In this document: one piece after another, positions 7,636-46,861 of the stretch
Layout of the letters: every line of letters begins with the position of its first letter
Position numbering within the stretch: the first letter of the stretch is position 1
Source of the DNA: Candidatus Cloacimonadales bacterium
Lineage (GTDB): Bacteria; Cloacimonadota; Cloacimonadia; Cloacimonadales; JAFGVF01
Reading direction: 5' to 3'
Assembly: GCA_963678315.1 (NCBI GenBank)
Contig: OY782781.1
Span: 2,464,001 to 2,528,000 of the forward strand
Length of the DNA stretch: 64,000 bases
The notes under the pieces: model-generated
What the model saw: only the letters and a program-made list of their open reading frames with translations
Told to the model about the DNA's origin: nothing
Database searches by the model: none
Position numbers and translations under genes: made by a program

Positions 7636-8028
7636 AACAGTAACTCCTAATTTTATTAATATTTATTAGATAAATTTGTAGCGATAACTTGGCAAGTAAA
7701 AAAATACTTTTTTTTCTCTGCCTAATCAGTGTAATCAGTATTCTATTCATTTGAACAGTTCTATAAATCTATATCGTCCCTTTAAAACAATATATCAAAT
7801 AAGATAACTATCCACAAATTACACTAATTACTCTAATTAAATCATTTTTGCCACAGATAACACAAATCTAAACCTTAATCAATTAAACATCTAAACTCGT
7901 AAACATCATATCTGTATAATCTGCCTTTTCTGTGCTCTATTTTATTTGAAAGACCAGCTATCCTGCAGTAGCCGGACTAAAAGCAAAGCGTTCCCAGTTA
8001 TTATTCATTATCATTTTCTATTTAAGAA

Positions 8029-40529: not shown

Positions 40530-40690
40530 TCTTAATCAAATATTTATTCGATTACATTCATCTTATAAGTTAAACATATTTTTTATAGTCTAATGTCAAT
40601 AAAAATATAATTGAGAGTTAGAATAACCCATTTTTTAAAGTTTGGATGACTGTCTTATTGACATTTTCAATAAGCAGACAAGAGTCACTC

Positions 40691-41192
40691 TGTCTTCATT
40701 ATCAATTGTCTATTATAAATTCATCCTCACATTCCACACGATTGAAATCATAGGTTCAGAGGAGATATGTTCTTCCAGGACGATACAATCTCTTAGCGTA
40801 AGCATGAACTATCTTGTTCAGCATAACGGCGGATGCTTGCACTCCTTTTTCTGAGACGTTTTTCCAAACGTCTCTACAAATTCAAATTCACTTATAACTA
40901 CCTTCTAAGTGAAGCCAGCACGGAGGCTGGCGATCCCAGTATGTCTTCATTATCAATTGTCTATTATAAATTCATCCTCACATTCCACACGATTGAAATC
41001 ATAGGCTCAGAGGAGATATATTCTTCCAGGACGATACAATCTCTTAGCGTAAGCGTAAGCATGAACTTTCTTGTTCAGCCTAACGGCGGATGCTTACACT
41101 CCTTTTTCTGAGACGTTTTTCCAAACGTCTCTACAAATTCAAATTCACTTATAACTACGTTCTAAGTGAAGCCAGCACGGAGGCTGGCGTTC
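40691..41192. repeat. Tandem duplication of a ~251-bp unit made of several hairpin repeats
   Basis: Unit 1 is 40691-40941; unit 2 starts at 40942 with an extra AGCGTA, is interrupted at 41192 by the intron and resumes at 43087. Confidence 0.92.
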
Positions 41193-43086
41193 GTACGATA
41201 GTGATATCTAACTATCTGTTAGGTGAAAGTCCTAACCAAATCTTACATCAGAGATTTGTAATTGAATGTAACTGCGTAACCGTGAGGTTGGGTGGGGAGT
41301 AACAGGAAATGAAAGACCAGTCCGTAACATTAGTGAACTCGTTTCGGCAGCTAATAGTGTTGAGCCTCCGATCGCAGGGCGAAAACTGATGATGATAAAG
41401 AGTTTTATCATACACCTGATAAACTGAATGATGTGATAAAGTTATATCAGGACTTTAGATGTGGTAGGAGATGGAATGGTAAGAAGTTAGTTAGAGGTAA
41501 GCTATGAGACCTGAATATAGGTTTAGAGATATATTCAGGAGTCAGAGTTCTCATAGTAGTGATGATACTTAGGACAGCATAACCTAAGAGTAGCGAAGGG
41601 GAACAGGATAATAAAATTTTGAAAGGAGAAACAGATGAAAGAAAAATGTTCGACAGTGTCAAAAGAGACTAAACAAGAACAAGAAGAAAACTCACAACTA
41701 AGATTAGAATGGGAGTGGACAGAATCATCTGTCTGGACAGACAAAATGTTGACAGCTCTCCAAAGGGGAGTCAAAGGTGGCAAATGGTTTAGTTTAATAG
41801 ATAAAGTTTATTCAAAAGCTAATCTGTTATCTGCATGGAAAAGAGTAAAAGCTAATAAAGGTAGTGCTGGAGTTGATAAGATGAATATTTCTCACTATGA
41901 GAAACATCTCGAACAAAGGCTACAAGGCTTAGCTAAACGCTTAGAAATGCAGGAATATAAGCCAAATGCAATTAAAAGGGTAATGATTGATAAACCTGGA
42001 AGTAAGGAGAAACGACCTTTAGGTATTCCAACAGTTGAGGACAGAATAGTTCAAACAGCAATAAGGAATGTAATCGAACCAATATTTGAAATAAATTTTT
42101 CAGATAACAGTTTTGGTTTTAGACCTAAAAGAAGTTGCAAAGATGCACTTAGAATAGTGTATAATAACCTTAACCGAGGCTATCGATACGTAGTTGATGC
42201 AGATTTAAAAGGATATTTTGATACAATACCTAAGTCTAAATTAATGGATTTAGTAAAAGAAGAAATATCTGATAGTCGGGTATTAGAATTGATTGAGAAA
42301 TTTCTAAATCAAAGTATATTTAATGGGCTAGATACATGGATTCCCGAAAAAGGAACACCACAAGGTGCAGTATTAAGTCCACTGTTAGCAAACATCTACT
42401 TGAACAAATTCGACTGGTTAATGAGTAGCAAATACTATCAAATGGTAAGATATGCTGATGATTTTATTATCATGTGTAGAAGCCAGAAAGAATCAGAAGA
42501 AGCTCTTGAAATAGTAAAGCAATGGACGGAAAAAGCTGAGTTAATTCTTCATCCTACAAAGACTAAAATTCTTGATAGTATGCAAGATGAGATAGGCTTT
42601 TTAGGTTATAGATTTGTTAAATCTAAGAACTATGAGAAAATAAAGATTTTCTGAAAGTTTCCTAAACGTAAGAGCGAAAAGAAATTCAAGGATAGTATAA
42701 GAAAACATACTAGAAGAACAAATGGGAAAAGCTTAAAAGAAATAATCAAACGAATAAACCGTATAATTCGGGGTTGGTTTGAATATTATAAACATTGTTA
42801 TAAAAGTACTTTTCCAGGTTTAGATGGTTGGATACGACGGTGATTAAGAAGTATTCTTAAGAAATTTGAAAAACGGAAAGGAATAGCTACAACAGGTAGA
42901 GATAATATCAGATACCCAAACAAAATCTTTGAAGACGCTGGGCTTCTCTCTCTAACCGAAACCCACCGTCAATTATGTCAATCTCTACATAGAGAGTAAA
43001 TTATTATCTGGAGAGCCGTATGCGGGAAAACCGCACGTACGGTTCGGAGGGAGGGGTGTCAGTAATGATAGCACCCCTACCCCTAT
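41193..43086 (+). mobile_element. Group II intron (IIB-like ribozyme, RT/maturase without endonuclease domain)
   Basis: 5' end GTACG; domain 5 GAGCCGTATGCGGGAAAACCGCACGTACGGTTC with AGC triad; domain 6 GGGGTG...CACCCCTACCCCTAT ending in AT; removal restores the repeat GCTGGCGTTC|CCAGTG. Confidence 0.92.
41635..42999 (+). pseudogene. ltrA: Group II intron reverse transcriptase/maturase interrupted by two in-frame TGA codons
   Basis: RPLGIPTVEDRIVQ, GTPQGAVLSPLLANIYL, YADD, FLGY. The frame continues past TGA at 42652-42654 and 42841-42843 through domain X (INRIIRGWFEYY, DGWIRR*LRSIL) to TAA at 42997-42999. Confidence 0.9.
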
Positions 43087-43155
43087 CCAGTGTTTAGCCA
43101 GCATGGAGGCTGGGCGTTCCCAGTGTTTAGCCAGCGCGGAGGCTGGCGTTCCCAA
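43087..43155. repeat. Two tandem 32-33 bp REP-like hairpin units (intron target family)
   Basis: CCAGTGTTTAGCCAGCATGGAGGCTGGGCGTTC and CCAGTGTTTAGCCAGCGCGGAGGCTGGCGTTC. Confidence 0.88.
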
Positions 43156-43173
43156 CTAGATTTTACTGTCTTT

Positions 43174-43573: not shown

Positions 43574-46500
43574 ATGAGAAAAACTATTTTATTCATTTTG
43601 TTACTTTCATTAGTTTTCTCGCTAGCTGCTGACAAATTTGTTGATGGTGCATACGAGAGAAATAATATTGTTGTAAGTTTCAAAATGGACACAATTGGAA
43701 ACATTGATGGTACAATCCCAGTAACTTACGACAATGGTATTGTTCAAACTAACATTGAATCATTTAATCAATTCGCAAGAGATTTCGCAGTAACTGAAAT
43801 CAAACAAGACTGTCCTTTCGTAAAAGACAAAGAATGGAACGATAACGGACAATACATTCAATGTATTTATAAAATTACAATTAAAGATCATAACAGAATT
43901 GAACAAGCTTTAGACACAATTCAAAAAAGCAATGATATTAATTGGGCACAATATGTAACTATTAATAGAACTTATTATACTCCAAATGACCAACTTTATT
44001 CAACACAGTGGTTCATTACTCAAACAGAAACAGATCAAGTTTGGGATTTTGTGAGAGATGCTTCTGATGTTGTTATTGGTATTACTGATTCAGGTATCAA
44101 ATGGAATCACCCAGATCTTCAAGACTTGATATTTATCAACCAAGCAGAAATGAATGGCGCTACTATTGATTGGGAAAACGGTACTTTCACAGGTAATGGC
44201 TTAGATGATGATAATAATGGTAAAGTTGATGATGTAATGGGTTGGGATTTCAACGCTAATGGTGGTGAAGACAACAATCCAATGCAGACTTTTGCAGCTA
44301 ACTATCACGGTACACACGTTGCAGGTTGTGCTTCTGCTGAAGGAGACAATGGCATAGGTACAGCAGGTCCTGCTTTTAATGCTAGATTAATTAACTGTAA
44401 AGGTGCTATCGATAATGGAGAATCAAATGGTATTGCTCAAGGTTACCCTCAAATAGTATATTGTGCTGATTTAGGTGCAGATATTATCAACGCATCATGG
44501 GGTGGACAAACTTCAAGTTTATACTATGCAAATAATTACATCAACTATGCTCACAATCATGGTTCTTTAGTTGTTGCAGCTGCTGGTAACGGAAACTTAC
44601 TTCACGGTAACGGTTATATGGATGCACCTGCTGACTGTGATAACGCTTTTTGTGTTGCGGCATTAGAATTAAATGACACAAAGGCTTCTTTCTCTGATTA
44701 CGGTGATCCTATTGATATTTCAGCTCCTGGTGTACAAATTAGATCTACAATCATCGAAAATAATGGTTGGGGAAATGCTCAAGGTACATCTATGGCTTCT
44801 CCTATTGTAGCAGGTATTGCAGCCTTAGTTAAAGCTGCTCACCCTGAACTTACAAACACCCAAATCAGACAACGTATTGAATATACAGCTGATTATATTG
44901 ATGATATTAACGAAGATTATACAAACCAATTAGGTGCTGGTAGAATTAATGCTTACACTGCTGTTTTATATGATTTAGTTCCTAAAATAAGTGTTGTTGA
45001 ATCTGAACTTACTGAAGTATCAGGCGATAATGATGGTGTAGTTAATCCTGGTGATGTCGCAAGTTTAAAAGTTAGATTAACTAACCATCAAGACTTGAAT
45101 ACAGGTATCTCATGGGCAAACTCTAATGATACTGAAGTTACACTAAGATGTGACTATCCTGGAATCGTTATCCAAGATTCTGTTGCAACTATCGGAAACA
45201 TTGTAGCTGGTAACTTTGTTTGGAATGATGATGAGCCTTTCTCATTTACATCATCTTCAGATGTTACTACTGCTCCAATAGAATTTACTCTTCATATTGT
45301 TTCTAATCAAGATGAAGAAATTCCTTACACAAAAGATATTACTTTTGAAATTAGCCTTTCTCTTAGCCATGCTAACTGGCCTTATGCAACTGATAGCCAA
45401 GCTCAATCTGCTCCTATCGTTTTAGATATGGATGGCCAAGCTGGGGACGAAGTGATTTTTGCTGACTTAGCTGGAAATGTTCATGTTCTTAATGGTGCTA
45501 ACGAAGAAATGTCTGGTTTCCCTGTAAATGTTGGAACTCAAGTACTTCTTCCGGTTGCTATTGGTGATTTAAATAACGATGATACTATGGATATTGCTGT
45601 TGTTAATTCAAGCAAAGAACTATATGCTATTGCTAATGATGGTTCAATTATTTATGGTCCTATATCATTAAACAACCAAATGGTAAAAGCTTCTCCAATG
45701 ATTGCTGATATGAACAACGATGGAGTTAATGACGTTGTTGTATGTACTATGACGGGTACACTTCATATCTTCAACCAAGCTGGTGAAGAACATGATGGTT
45801 ACCCTGTTTCATACACAGGTAACTTTGTCTTTAATAATGCTATAGCTGACATGAATAATGATGGTAGCAAAGAAATTATCCTACAAGCAATTAATGGTAA
45901 CATCTTAGTAATAGATTATAATACAACTGAAAATATAGATGGTTTCCCATTTGCTATTGGTGCAAACACTGAAGCTGCTCCTATTGTAGTTAACTTAGAT
46001 GATGATAATTATCCTGAACTATTAGTTACTGAACATTCTTCTGGAATGATATTTGGTGTTGACCATGATGGTTCTACATTGTTCTCACACCAAATGAATA
46101 TCACAATTAAAAAAGATGTTCTTGTTGCTGACTTCAATGGAGATGGTGCTAAAGAAATCTTATTTGTATCATATAATGGTAATGTTGGGGCAATTAACCT
46201 AGATGGTGAATACCTTCCTAACTTCCCACTAGATATGGGTGGTTTCTTAGAAGGAAATATGATTCTAGCTAATCTTGACGGTGACGGACTATGCATGATT
46301 TTTGGTGATGCAGCTGGTTACTTACATGCTATCAAATCTGACACTTCAGAAGCTAATAACTTCCCTATTTACCTTAATGATAACTTAAAATTCACTCCAG
46401 CTATAGGTGATGTTGATGGTGATGATGATTTAGATATTGCTGTTGCTAACATTTCAGGAATGCAATTGTTAGATATGAAACGTAATGGTTATGGTGCTTG

Positions 46501-46861
46501 GACTATGTATAAAGGTAATCCACAAAGAACAGCAAATATGTTTGAAGCATATACAGATGTTGATGACAATGATGTTGCAGTTTATGATAATGGTTTAATT
46601 GGTAACTATCCAAACCCATTCAATCCTGAAACTACTATTTCTTATAATCTAGAAAAATCAGCAGACGTTCAAATCAATGTGTATAACATTAAAGGTCAGC
46701 TTGTTAAGAATCTTGTTAATGACCACAAAGCTGCTGGTAATCATACTGTTGTTTGGAATGGTAAAGACAACAATAATAACAATGTATCATCAGGCGTATA
46801 TTTCTACAAAATGAAAGGTGGAAAATACTCTAAAACAAAGAAAATGATTCTTATGAAATAG
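43574..46861 (+). CDS. Secreted S8 (subtilisin-like) serine peptidase with FG-GAP repeats and C-terminal sorting domain
   Basis: Triad GITDSG / YHGTHVAG / GTSMASP; repeated 'DMNNDG' FG-GAP motifs; NYPNPFNPETTI CTD. Confidence 0.92.
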   Translation: MRKTILFILLLSLVFSLAADKFVDGAYERNNIVVSFKMDTIGNIDGTIPVTYDNGIVQTNIESFNQFARDFAVTEIKQDCPFVKDKEWNDNGQYIQCIYKITIKDHNRIEQALDTIQKSNDINWAQYVTINRTYYTPNDQLYSTQWFITQTETDQVWDFVRDASDVVIGITDSGIKWNHPDLQDLIFINQAEMNGATIDWENGTFTGNGLDDDNNGKVDDVMGWDFNANGGEDNNPMQTFAANYHGTHVAGCASAEGDNGIGTAGPAFNARLINCKGAIDNGESNGIAQGYPQIVYCADLGADIINASWGGQTSSLYYANNYINYAHNHGSLVVAAAGNGNLLHGNGYMDAPADCDNAFCVAALELNDTKASFSDYGDPIDISAPGVQIRSTIIENNGWGNAQGTSMASPIVAGIAALVKAAHPELTNTQIRQRIEYTADYIDDINEDYTNQLGAGRINAYTAVLYDLVPKISVVESELTEVSGDNDGVVNPGDVASLKVRLTNHQDLNTGISWANSNDTEVTLRCDYPGIVIQDSVATIGNIVAGNFVWNDDEPFSFTSSSDVTTAPIEFTLHIVSNQDEEIPYTKDITFEISLSLSHANWPYATDSQAQSAPIVLDMDGQAGDEVIFADLAGNVHVLNGANEEMSGFPVNVGTQVLLPVAIGDLNNDDTMDIAVVNSSKELYAIANDGSIIYGPISLNNQMVKASPMIADMNNDGVNDVVVCTMTGTLHIFNQAGEEHDGYPVSYTGNFVFNNAIADMNNDGSKEIILQAINGNILVIDYNTTENIDGFPFAIGANTEAAPIVVNLDDDNYPELLVTEHSSGMIFGVDHDGSTLFSHQMNITIKKDVLVADFNGDGAKEILFVSYNGNVGAINLDGEYLPNFPLDMGGFLEGNMILANLDGDGLCMIFGDAAGYLHAIKSDTSEANNFPIYLNDNLKFTPAIGDVDGDDDLDIAVANISGMQLLDMKRNGYGAWTMYKGNPQRTANMFEAYTDVDDNDVAVYDNGLIGNYPNPFNPETTISYNLEKSADVQINVYNIKGQLVKNLVNDHKAAGNHTVVWNGKDNNNNNVSSGVYFYKMKGGKYSKTKKMILMK

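Follow-up and report, generated by a model that had tools for sequence, protein, structure and literature searches.

How a group II intron chooses its landing place is the question raised by a 64,000-nt stretch of DNA from a Candidatus Cloacimonadales bacterium (contig OY782781.1 of assembly GCA_963678315.1, positions 2,464,001 to 2,528,000, forward strand; hereafter the window, the numbering of which is used below unless a contig coordinate is given). In this window an intron of 1894 nt (41193 to 43086, GTACG...CTAT) interrupts a hairpin-bearing repeat; the intron, its parts and the neighboring repeats are all on the + strand. The reading we favor, with a probability of about 0.8, is that an endonuclease-less intron, from a clade next to class C (IIC), homes into the repetitive extragenic palindromic (REP) modules of its host by means of a DNA hairpin and a short exon-binding site 1 (EBS1). 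Hairpin-guided homing into harmless repeats is a known strategy; its carrier here belongs to a clade beside class C, and its longer EBS1 covaries with the REP tail of each host.

The limits of the intron were set by an Rfam match, by its sequence and by a second genomic copy. Intron_gpII (RF00029, domains 5-6) matched at 43011-43086 with 62.7 bits and was the sole Rfam family to reach its gathering score in the window. Together with this match, the GTACG start (GUGYG-like), the CTAT end and an encoded protein with RVT_1 and GIIM domains place the element among group II introns. The boundaries cannot be slid, as the initial annotation had claimed, since the last base is C in the 5' exon but T in the intron, and the first base is G in the intron but C in the 3' exon. 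The intron also starts 4 nt past the hairpin, as previously stated, with the hairpin at 41171-41188, GTTC at 41189-41192 and the intron from 41193.

The target hairpin (41171-41188, GCCAGC-ACGGAG-GCTGGC) has a 6-bp stem and a 6-nt loop and occupies the position that IBS2 (intron-binding site 2) holds in IIA/IIB introns. It belongs to a REP module of which all the other copies noted earlier are present. An unoccupied module at 40914-40940 has the hairpin GCCAGC-ACGGAG-GCTGGC and the tail CGATC↓CCAGT (the arrow marks the actual or would-be insertion point), the last five bases before the point being fully complementary to the EBS1 sequence GAUCG. Uninterrupted sister modules follow the intron at 43097-43125 (GCCAGC-ATGGAG-GCTGG-G-CGTTCCCAGTG) and 43130-43155 (GCCAGC-GCGGAG-GCTGGC-GTTCCCAA), and an isolated copy of the tail, GCGTTCCCAGT, is located at 7988-7998. 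The joined flanks, GCTGGCGTTC↓CCAGTG, had been said to match the uninterrupted sister copies; near matches were found, but no exact twin exists within the window, for the copy at 43097 has an extra G (GCTGGGCGTTCCCAGTG), that at 43130 ends in CCCAAC, and that at 40914 has CGATC for CGTTC. The occupied module closes a composite repeat of about 250 bp (40690-41192), present as two tandem copies that are 95% alike, each terminated by a REP hairpin module. When the unit was compared with the genome by blastn, parts of it were found dispersed in dozens of copies, its last ~95 nt recurring at dozens of places. A second hairpin (GAGACGTTTTTCCAAACGTCTC) lies upstream of the REP module within this composite repeat, and the open reading frames (ORFs) of 70-92 aa predicted over it are unlikely to be real.

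For the comparisons that follow, G000 denotes the genome holding the window, and G001, G003, G005, G006, G009, G013, G027, G053, G067, G119, G177 and G178 denote relatives. A second intron copy in G000 (G000:C1:1079282-1081175, minus strand) differs from the window copy at 11 of 1894 nt (99.4% identical) and is inserted at the identical point of another REP, GCCAGC-TAGCA-GCTGGCGTTC↓CCAGT. In both of its copies in this genome, the intron thus interrupts the REP family at one and the same position, in two separate members. The flanks of the two copies have diverged: the hairpin loops are ACGGAG and TAGCA, substitutions and an indel separate the upstream repeats, and past CCAGT no relationship is left between the 3' flanks. 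Because the intron copies are near-identical while loops, upstream repeat and 3' flanks are not, the comparison fits two independent insertions by retrohoming into two members of the repeat rather than a segmental duplication. GC skew, which puts the origin near 0.73 Mb and the terminus near 2.0 Mb, assigns both copies to the C-rich (lagging-sequence) strand. The C-rich strand also carries 73 of the 103 hairpin-bearing REP sites, and two copies permit no conclusion on a strand bias.

Full-length relatives were found by a DNA search of 41 related genomes in G001 (one copy), G005 (two), G027 (six) and G013 (six), and G006 has an incomplete copy. Of 232 genomes of the phylum searched at the protein level, 19 contain the family at identities of at least 54%, the next-best matches being at most 45% identical. 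In addition, two Burkholderiales (betaproteobacterial) plasmids, from Paraburkholderia and Cupriavidus, encode a 46%-identical protein within an intron of the same architecture. The 5' exons were read at 30 chromosomal insertion sites from 18 genomes; G053, in which the 5' end was not found by pattern, was excluded, and the two plasmid sites (5-bp stem, 5 nt upstream) were counted for EBS1 only. A perfect stem of at least 6 bp ending no more than 9 nt from the insertion was present at 28 of the 30 sites compared with 2.9% of 1995 control windows drawn from sequence flanking the loci examined, and for stems of at least 5 bp the figures were 29/30 and 9.6%. The distance from stem to insertion was typically 3-4 nt, and 29 sites folded better than the 5th percentile of the controls. 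The target hairpins of different genomes are unrelated in sequence. Insertion of homologues at non-palindromic sites, which would have spoken against the initial annotation, is thus not what is seen. As a negative control, a second intron family (Rfam D1D4-4 type) had no such stem at 4/4 sites in G000 and G009 and had an exon sequence in common instead. As a positive control, an RF02001-typed intron in G003 was found behind stem-loop plus T-run terminators at two of the three copies read.

Besides the hairpin, the sites share a short pairing with the intron. EBS1 (GAUCG, 41370-41374) immediately follows the conserved GAGCCUCC, within a small hairpin loop that a GCC/GGC stem closes, and was identified by its covariation with the final five bases of the 5' exon (IBS1, CGTTC, 41188-41192). 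The comparison covered 22 distinct EBS1/IBS1 combinations, in which 18 EBS1 sequences occur; at least four of the five positions were paired in 21 of them and all five in 10. Non-cognate combinations average 2.6/5, and none of 20000 permutations reached the observed total. A candidate EBS1 in the loop of the stem-loop at 41415-41451 (GAAUG against CGUUC) was rejected, since it does not covary in relatives and the loop pairs with 41245-41249 as alpha-prime; a second register 5-7 nt downstream of EBS1 was dropped after 12 more members were added. No covarying second exon-binding site (EBS2) was found among the window copy, the second copy in G000 (copy b) and the relatives. An EBS2-IBS2 pairing is further contradicted by G027 and G013, because near-identical copies within each of these genomes sit behind differently sequenced stems. 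An EBS2-like 8-bp pairing of AGCCUCCG (intron 171-178) with CGGAGGCU (exon -15 to -8) is confined to the window copy. The first base of the 3' exon (C, 43087) is presumably IBS3, judging from the +1 base across sites, which is C at 25 of the 30 chromosomal sites, that of G119 included, T in G013 and G067, G in G178 and A in the plasmids. No aligned column fits the +1 base as EBS3 in all members, the best candidate having two exceptions.

The window sits in a single-contig genome of 2.99 Mb with 32.8% G+C, for which the type IX secretion sorting domain encoded by a neighboring ORF suggests a place in Bacteroidota. The repeat is abundant in it: GCGTTCCCA is found 149 times where 4.4 copies would be expected, and GCTGGCGTTCCCA 12 times where 0.006 would be. 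The 5-mers that most commonly precede CCAGT are CGTTC (149), CGATC (54) and CAATC (30), and 207 REP tails were counted in total. Each module consists of a GC-rich hairpin and a tail, and the modules are often arranged in tandem arrays of 31-37-nt units or contained in larger composite repeats. Long head-to-tail arrays without spacers, which are not CRISPR-like, occur at G000:C1:545059-545214 (6 units) and 891406-891770 (11 units), with units of 31-37 nt. The genome has nine Y1_Tnp matches, three of which have 4-8 REP tails within 700 nt against 0.11 expected per window of that size, and one of these genes is flanked by REP tails in inverted orientation, the classical picture of a REP-associated tyrosine transposase (RAYT) and its REPs. 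The window repeat is therefore a true REP family, and the label "REP-like" given to it earlier is justified by Y1 (RAYT-like) genes flanked by its tails, one of them inverted. The REP families named in the title of PMC3733652 carry GTAG or CGTC tags, from which the tag of this repeat differs. Two RAYT-like Y1 transposase genes, at G000:C1:1110163-1111057 and 1114916-1115393, are bordered by REP arrays with the same tail, one inverted, and six of the nine Y1_Tnp matches fall within 1.10-1.13 Mb of the genome.

The relationship between intron and host repeat recurs in other genomes with other sequences. In G000, both copies lie in the REP family, at CGTTC↓CCAGT sites. G027 contains 55 copies of its own hairpin (0 for the reversed-pattern control), and five of its six introns lie behind it with an EBS1 of UAGGG for the tail CCCUA. 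G013 contains 21 copies (control 0), and four of its six introns lie behind the hairpin with an EBS1 of UAGCC for the tail GGCUA. The proposal that a multicopy palindrome family serves as the landing pad is thus supported in three genomes, including by the fit of EBS1 to the tails.

From these associations the following route may be proposed. The intron would choose its target by a DNA stem-loop and six bases rather than by a long sequence; the six bases would be the five 3' of the stem (IBS1, read by the 5-nt EBS1) and probably the first base of the 3' exon. The hairpin would take the place of IBS2, no EBS2-IBS2 pairing being involved. In the AT-rich genome of G000, the GC-rich hairpins with a constant tail are about 200 RAYT-type REP modules of the form hairpin plus CG(T/A)TC↓CCAGT, and it is for this reason that the intron would land in REPs. 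In relatives, EBS1 would have been re-tuned to the tail of the host's own hairpin repeat. By analogy with IIC and other endonuclease-less introns, the hairpin may form in single-stranded DNA, with the RNA reverse-splicing behind it, and the nascent strand at the replication fork may prime cDNA synthesis. The data show directly where the intron begins and ends, that it was inserted twice independently, its association with hairpins, the covariation of EBS1 with IBS1, the REP nature of the repeat and the clade; recognition of the hairpin itself, the priming route and any present-day activity are inferred. REPs, being intergenic and presumably dispensable, should admit the intron at small cost to the host.

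Two other explanations concern the way in which the copies reached their sites. One is homing of the IIA/IIB kind, in which the intron would recognize nothing but the sequence of the REP consensus, and the hairpin, having no role of its own, would merely travel with the repeat. About 70 nt of similar 5' flank are indeed common to both copies in G000, and the window copy has the 8-nt complementarity between intron 171-178 and exon -15 to -8 described above. However, the family conserves the intron segment AGCCUCCG although its exons vary, and neither copy b nor the relatives show the complementarity, which rules the segment out as EBS2. One intron sequence is moreover found behind three hairpins in G013 and behind three stem variants in G027, and all that is common to the 18 genomes is a stem-loop with five bases matched to EBS1. 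Sequence-only homing is accordingly very improbable. A passive spread of both copies, by duplication or by RAYT-driven movement of an intron-bearing repeat instead of retrohoming, would draw on the facts that the repeat is mobile in principle, with RAYT-like genes present, and that both copies occupy the same place of the larger composite repeat. Yet the introns are 99.4% identical within a flanking repeat that carries substitutions and indels, the 3' flanks are unrelated after 5 nt, and the same pattern is seen in other genomes with six copies each at distinct loci, so that this explanation appears extremely improbable.

The remaining alternative is that the element is an ordinary class C intron, its deviations being variation within the class and the REPs an instance of the "other inverted repeats" already known as targets. 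In a tree of 44 proteins (IQ-TREE careful search, support pairs as given, the second-family intron of G000 being left out because the sequence of its locus did not include the ORF), the 21 family proteins form a clade of their own (100/99) that lies outside a clade (97/92) of all eight RF02001-typed proteins and one misplaced long branch; the typed proteins come from four phyla (Bacteroidota, Bacillota and Pseudomonadota among them) and include an integron attC example. Both clades are on the same side of a weak branch (85/82), which joins the family to the IIC side, and the class labels of this tree are Rfam-typing proxies rather than curated class references, which limits what it says on separation from class C; the equation of RF02001 with IIC is suggested by its consensus and by the sites of the typed members. 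A Rhodococcus jostii RHA1 plasmid intron, taken as Rh.js.I1, which is g1 of Toro 2013, falls away from the family clade. In RNA searches, the window intron had no match to RF02001 at E<=10 and for five other members RF02003 was the best model, with 24-32 bits against a cut-off of 49, whereas the Paraburkholderia plasmid member exceeded the RF02001 cut-off of 32 bits (41.8) and G177 fell short of it (28.2). The best matches among solved structures are four reverse transcriptases (RTs) including that of GsI-IIC (E 5.5e-52 to 5.8e-51, ~177-180 bits), with lower scores for LtrA (140 bits) and the 6me0 maturase RT (125 bits), and most, though not all, family members have GGAAG at the place of the IIC epsilon-prime AGGAA.

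The behavior of the family is identical to the description of IIC introns in the available text of Toor 2006 (PMC1702495), where insertion follows terminators "or other inverted repeats", without EBS2 and without an endonuclease. The same text gives class C an EBS1 of 3-4 bp, a CGC domain 5 with a distal stem 2 bp shorter, an AGGAA bulge and a small size. Here, insertion a few nt 3' of a stem-loop and the lack of an EBS2-IBS2 pairing and of an endonuclease domain agree with IIC, but EBS1 has five covarying positions, domain 5 is 33 nt long with an AGC triad, and 529 nt of ribozyme lie outside the ORF, compared with the 412 nt that the available text of Nagy 2013 (PMC3753933) gives for O.i.I1. 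The AGC triad is not diagnostic, because the RF02001-typed, terminator-inserted intron of G003 also carries it, and this undoes the argument of the initial annotation that an AGC domain 5 marks a non-IIC intron. The claimed non-IIC lineage itself stands insofar as the family has its own clade outside the RF02001 clade and the window copy has no RF02001 match, and falls short insofar as that clade adjoins IIC and behaves like it; the RT accordingly groups beside the ordinary IIC introns and not inside them. On this evidence an ordinary class C intron is unlikely, and the family is better described as a separate, weakly placed protein clade that appears to lie beside class C, with members in Bacteroidota and on betaproteobacterial plasmids.

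Like the weak branch, the proxy labels and the Paraburkholderia score, several further observations weigh against homing through hairpin and EBS1 by a clade outside class C. Recognition of the hairpin as a structure is suggested by its association with the sites, and 12 of the 30 sites come from two genomes, so that kin are not independent. In G006, EBS1 and IBS1 pair at 1/5 positions only. Both copies in G000 occupy CGTTC sites, which pair at 4/5 positions with their own EBS1 GAUCG, while 35 hairpin-bearing CGATC↓CCAGT sites with a perfect match to it are empty, one of them 257 bp upstream of the window copy; this distribution argues against recent activity with the present EBS1. Contigs of public run X5 have G at 41372, which gives the EBS1 GAGCG, as in G001. 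Since GAGCG fits CGUUC at 5/5 positions (one G-U), this is most simply read as a lineage tuned to CGTTC, the tail that occurs most often, in which the U of this genome may have arisen later. The joint of 41192 to 43087, expected of an empty site or of spliced exons, was found in none of four of the 24 listed public runs. Other joints near the site in public runs (41187 to 43115, 41176 to 43167 and others) were attributed to paralogous REP copies, and the RNA run had 0 reads on the stretch and so provides no test of splicing. Finally, an in-frame TGA stands at codon 340 of the intron protein gene in 5/5 copies of the lineage made up of G000, G001 and G005, and runs X4, X5 and X9 show the same codon.

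The gene of this protein (41635-42999; ORF and domain search) comprises 454 codons and TAA, with two in-frame TGA codons. RVT_1 (E 6.6e-42) and GIIM maturase (E 9.1e-17) were the only domains found, from which the absence of a DNA endonuclease domain follows. Alignment of the copies placed the TGA of codon 340 (42652-42654) inside a 9-codon insertion, absent from G027 and G013, in which it comes after a 7-bp AU-rich hairpin. Over the 114 codons downstream of it, G000 and G001 differ by 33 synonymous and 9 non-synonymous changes (synonymous divergence dS 0.77; ratio of non-synonymous to synonymous divergence, dN/dS, 0.043), and constraint is similar over the 339 codons upstream (dN/dS 0.052). 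A dN/dS of 0.043 at this dS indicates that the downstream region has evidently been translated, so that the UGA must in some way be passed. The genome has a tRNA-Sec (G000:C1:2291151-2291245) and a SelB-like ORF; no fold resembling a selenocysteine insertion sequence (SECIS) was detected at the UGA, segments of 64 nt from it and of 76 nt spanning it giving z values of -1.1 and -1.0 against shuffles. A conserved UGA with purifying selection downstream makes this a candidate for regulated read-through in a retroelement protein. The second TGA (codon 403, 42841-42843) is a nonsense mutation private to the window copy, since copy b of G000, G001, G005 and runs X4 and X5 all have CGA (Arg) there. 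On account of this mutation, the window copy probably lacks a full-length protein and is probably unable to move on its own.

A wider proposal is that the family is a distinct class, sister to class C across phyla, with an EBS1 re-tuned to the RAYT-REP tags of each host and a UGA-gated protein in one sub-lineage; we regard it as conceivable but doubtful. If it were true, two selfish systems would be coupled, the REPs offering a safe, self-renewing pad and the intron reading the tail that marks a REP for its transposase. The UGA between the RT and maturase domains would then be read through or recoded in that sub-lineage, whose host has tRNA-Sec and SelB.

Compared with known class C introns (B.h.I1, GsI-IIC, O.i.I1; excerpts of PMC1702495 and PMC4424553), the family likewise has no endonuclease, inserts a few nt past a stem-loop, lacks EBS2, uses a short EBS1 and is intergenic. 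It differs in its position outside the RF02001 clade, the missing RF02001 match of the window copy, a 5-nt EBS1, a 33-nt AGC domain 5 with a 5-nt loop and a 529-nt ribozyme, and in targeting REP hairpins with a constant tail in place of a stem-loop and T run. Stem-loop homing is described as a class C trait in the sections seen of Zimmerly & Semper 2015 (PMC4424553) and Waldern 2020, and the corresponding part of Sonbol and Siam 2021 (PMC7923331) states that upstream structures have not been reported to play any part for IIB introns. The IIC-attC introns of integrons are likewise a hairpin-homing lineage specialized on one family of recombination-site repeats (PMC4424553, in the same sections), but their hairpins are integron attC sites whereas those here are RAYT-associated REPs, and the Klebsiella integron example is RF02001-typed and lies in the IIC clade. 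Probably the nearest published statement concerns the non-C protein types g6, U1 and U2, placed near class C and often found directly after Rho-independent terminators in the main passages of Miura 2022 (PMC8919778); the comparison is by description only, and those passages deal with terminators, not with REP families or EBS1 re-tuning. Read-through is considered there as well, for intron proteins that are interrupted, and g6 is defined as C-like in the part seen of Toro and Nisa-Martinez 2014.

Introns of classes IIE/IIF resemble the family in a 5-nt domain 5 loop, an alpha-prime at the end of a stem-loop, a ribozyme of 450-700 nt and the lack of an endonuclease; the excerpted text of Nagy 2013 (PMC3753933) lists the first two as IIE/IIF traits. 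Unlike the family, which has no EBS2 and almost always a hairpin, these introns have a clear, covarying EBS2-IBS2 pairing and, in that text, no described role of an exon hairpin. REPs are also known as targets of other mobile elements, namely ISPpu9, ISPpu10 and a group II intron of P. putida KT2440, two of whose nine copies (22%) are REP-associated according to the portion seen of Tobes & Pareja 2006 (PMC1525189). Those are mostly DNA transposons and the intron association is weak, in contrast to the 2/2, 5/6 and 4/6 copies with a matched EBS1 here. No description of EBS1 re-tuning to REP tails, or of the clade by name, was found in the literature covered, which did not extend to the supplements of Toro 2013 and Miura 2022 that may list the lineage.

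These findings leave the general picture of group II intron biology unchanged. They imply that hairpin-guided homing, usually seen as the private trick of class C, may be performed by a well-delimited neighboring clade, and three genomes matched to three host repeat families offer a natural series for weighing structure against base pairing in target choice. REP families may act as sinks for retroelements in AT-rich genomes, the copies here lying behind REPs and not behind T-run terminators. For annotation, REP homing would explain why assemblies break at such introns within repeats.

The ribozyme has further features bearing on its class. Domain 5 (43013-43045; Rfam alignment and fold) has an AGC triad, a 4-bp distal stem and the 5-nt loop GAAAA; the AGC triad reported earlier was thus found, but the domain is 33 nt long instead of the 34 nt of a full-length one. 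Domain 6 and the intron 3' end occupy 43046-43086 (Rfam match). Alpha (ACAUC, 41245-41249), in a hairpin loop of domain 1, pairs with alpha-prime (GAUGU, 41430-41434) in the terminal loop of the stem-loop at 41415-41451. The two pair at four or more of five positions in 18 of 20 aligned introns, with compensatory changes on both sides. IIC introns may also pair alpha loop-to-loop, so that alpha-prime is of little use for telling the classes apart.

The second, unrelated group II family of G000 is present at 982661-984567 (+) and ~2874731-2876637 (-), the two copies being 99.5% alike. It is inserted without a hairpin at the common exon sequence TGCATYAWYYGGG↓TTTAAC, and its relatives match Rfam D1D4-4. 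In G009, there are seven matches to its conserved segment, probably seven copies, of which two were read. The 3' exon of the G178 copy (L065) of the first family resembles the end of domain 5 and domain 6 of the second (...GGTTTGATGAGGGGGACAGG...CTCTACTCTAC), which hints at insertion next to or into the remnant of another intron. The plasmid copies of Paraburkholderia (L078) and Cupriavidus (L079) are similar over ~230 nt upstream, a stretch that contains the target hairpin ACCGC-GTCA-GCGGT. The L078 intron has an integrase/recombinase gene on either side and may there be carried by a larger mobile element. In G119 (L053 641-699), a fluoride riboswitch (54.9 bits) was detected ~340 nt upstream of the intron copy. 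Beyond the intron, window positions 43574-46861 contain an ORF of 1095 aa, unrelated to it, whose product is a subtilase that carries FG-GAP repeats and, at its C-terminus, a type IX secretion sorting domain.

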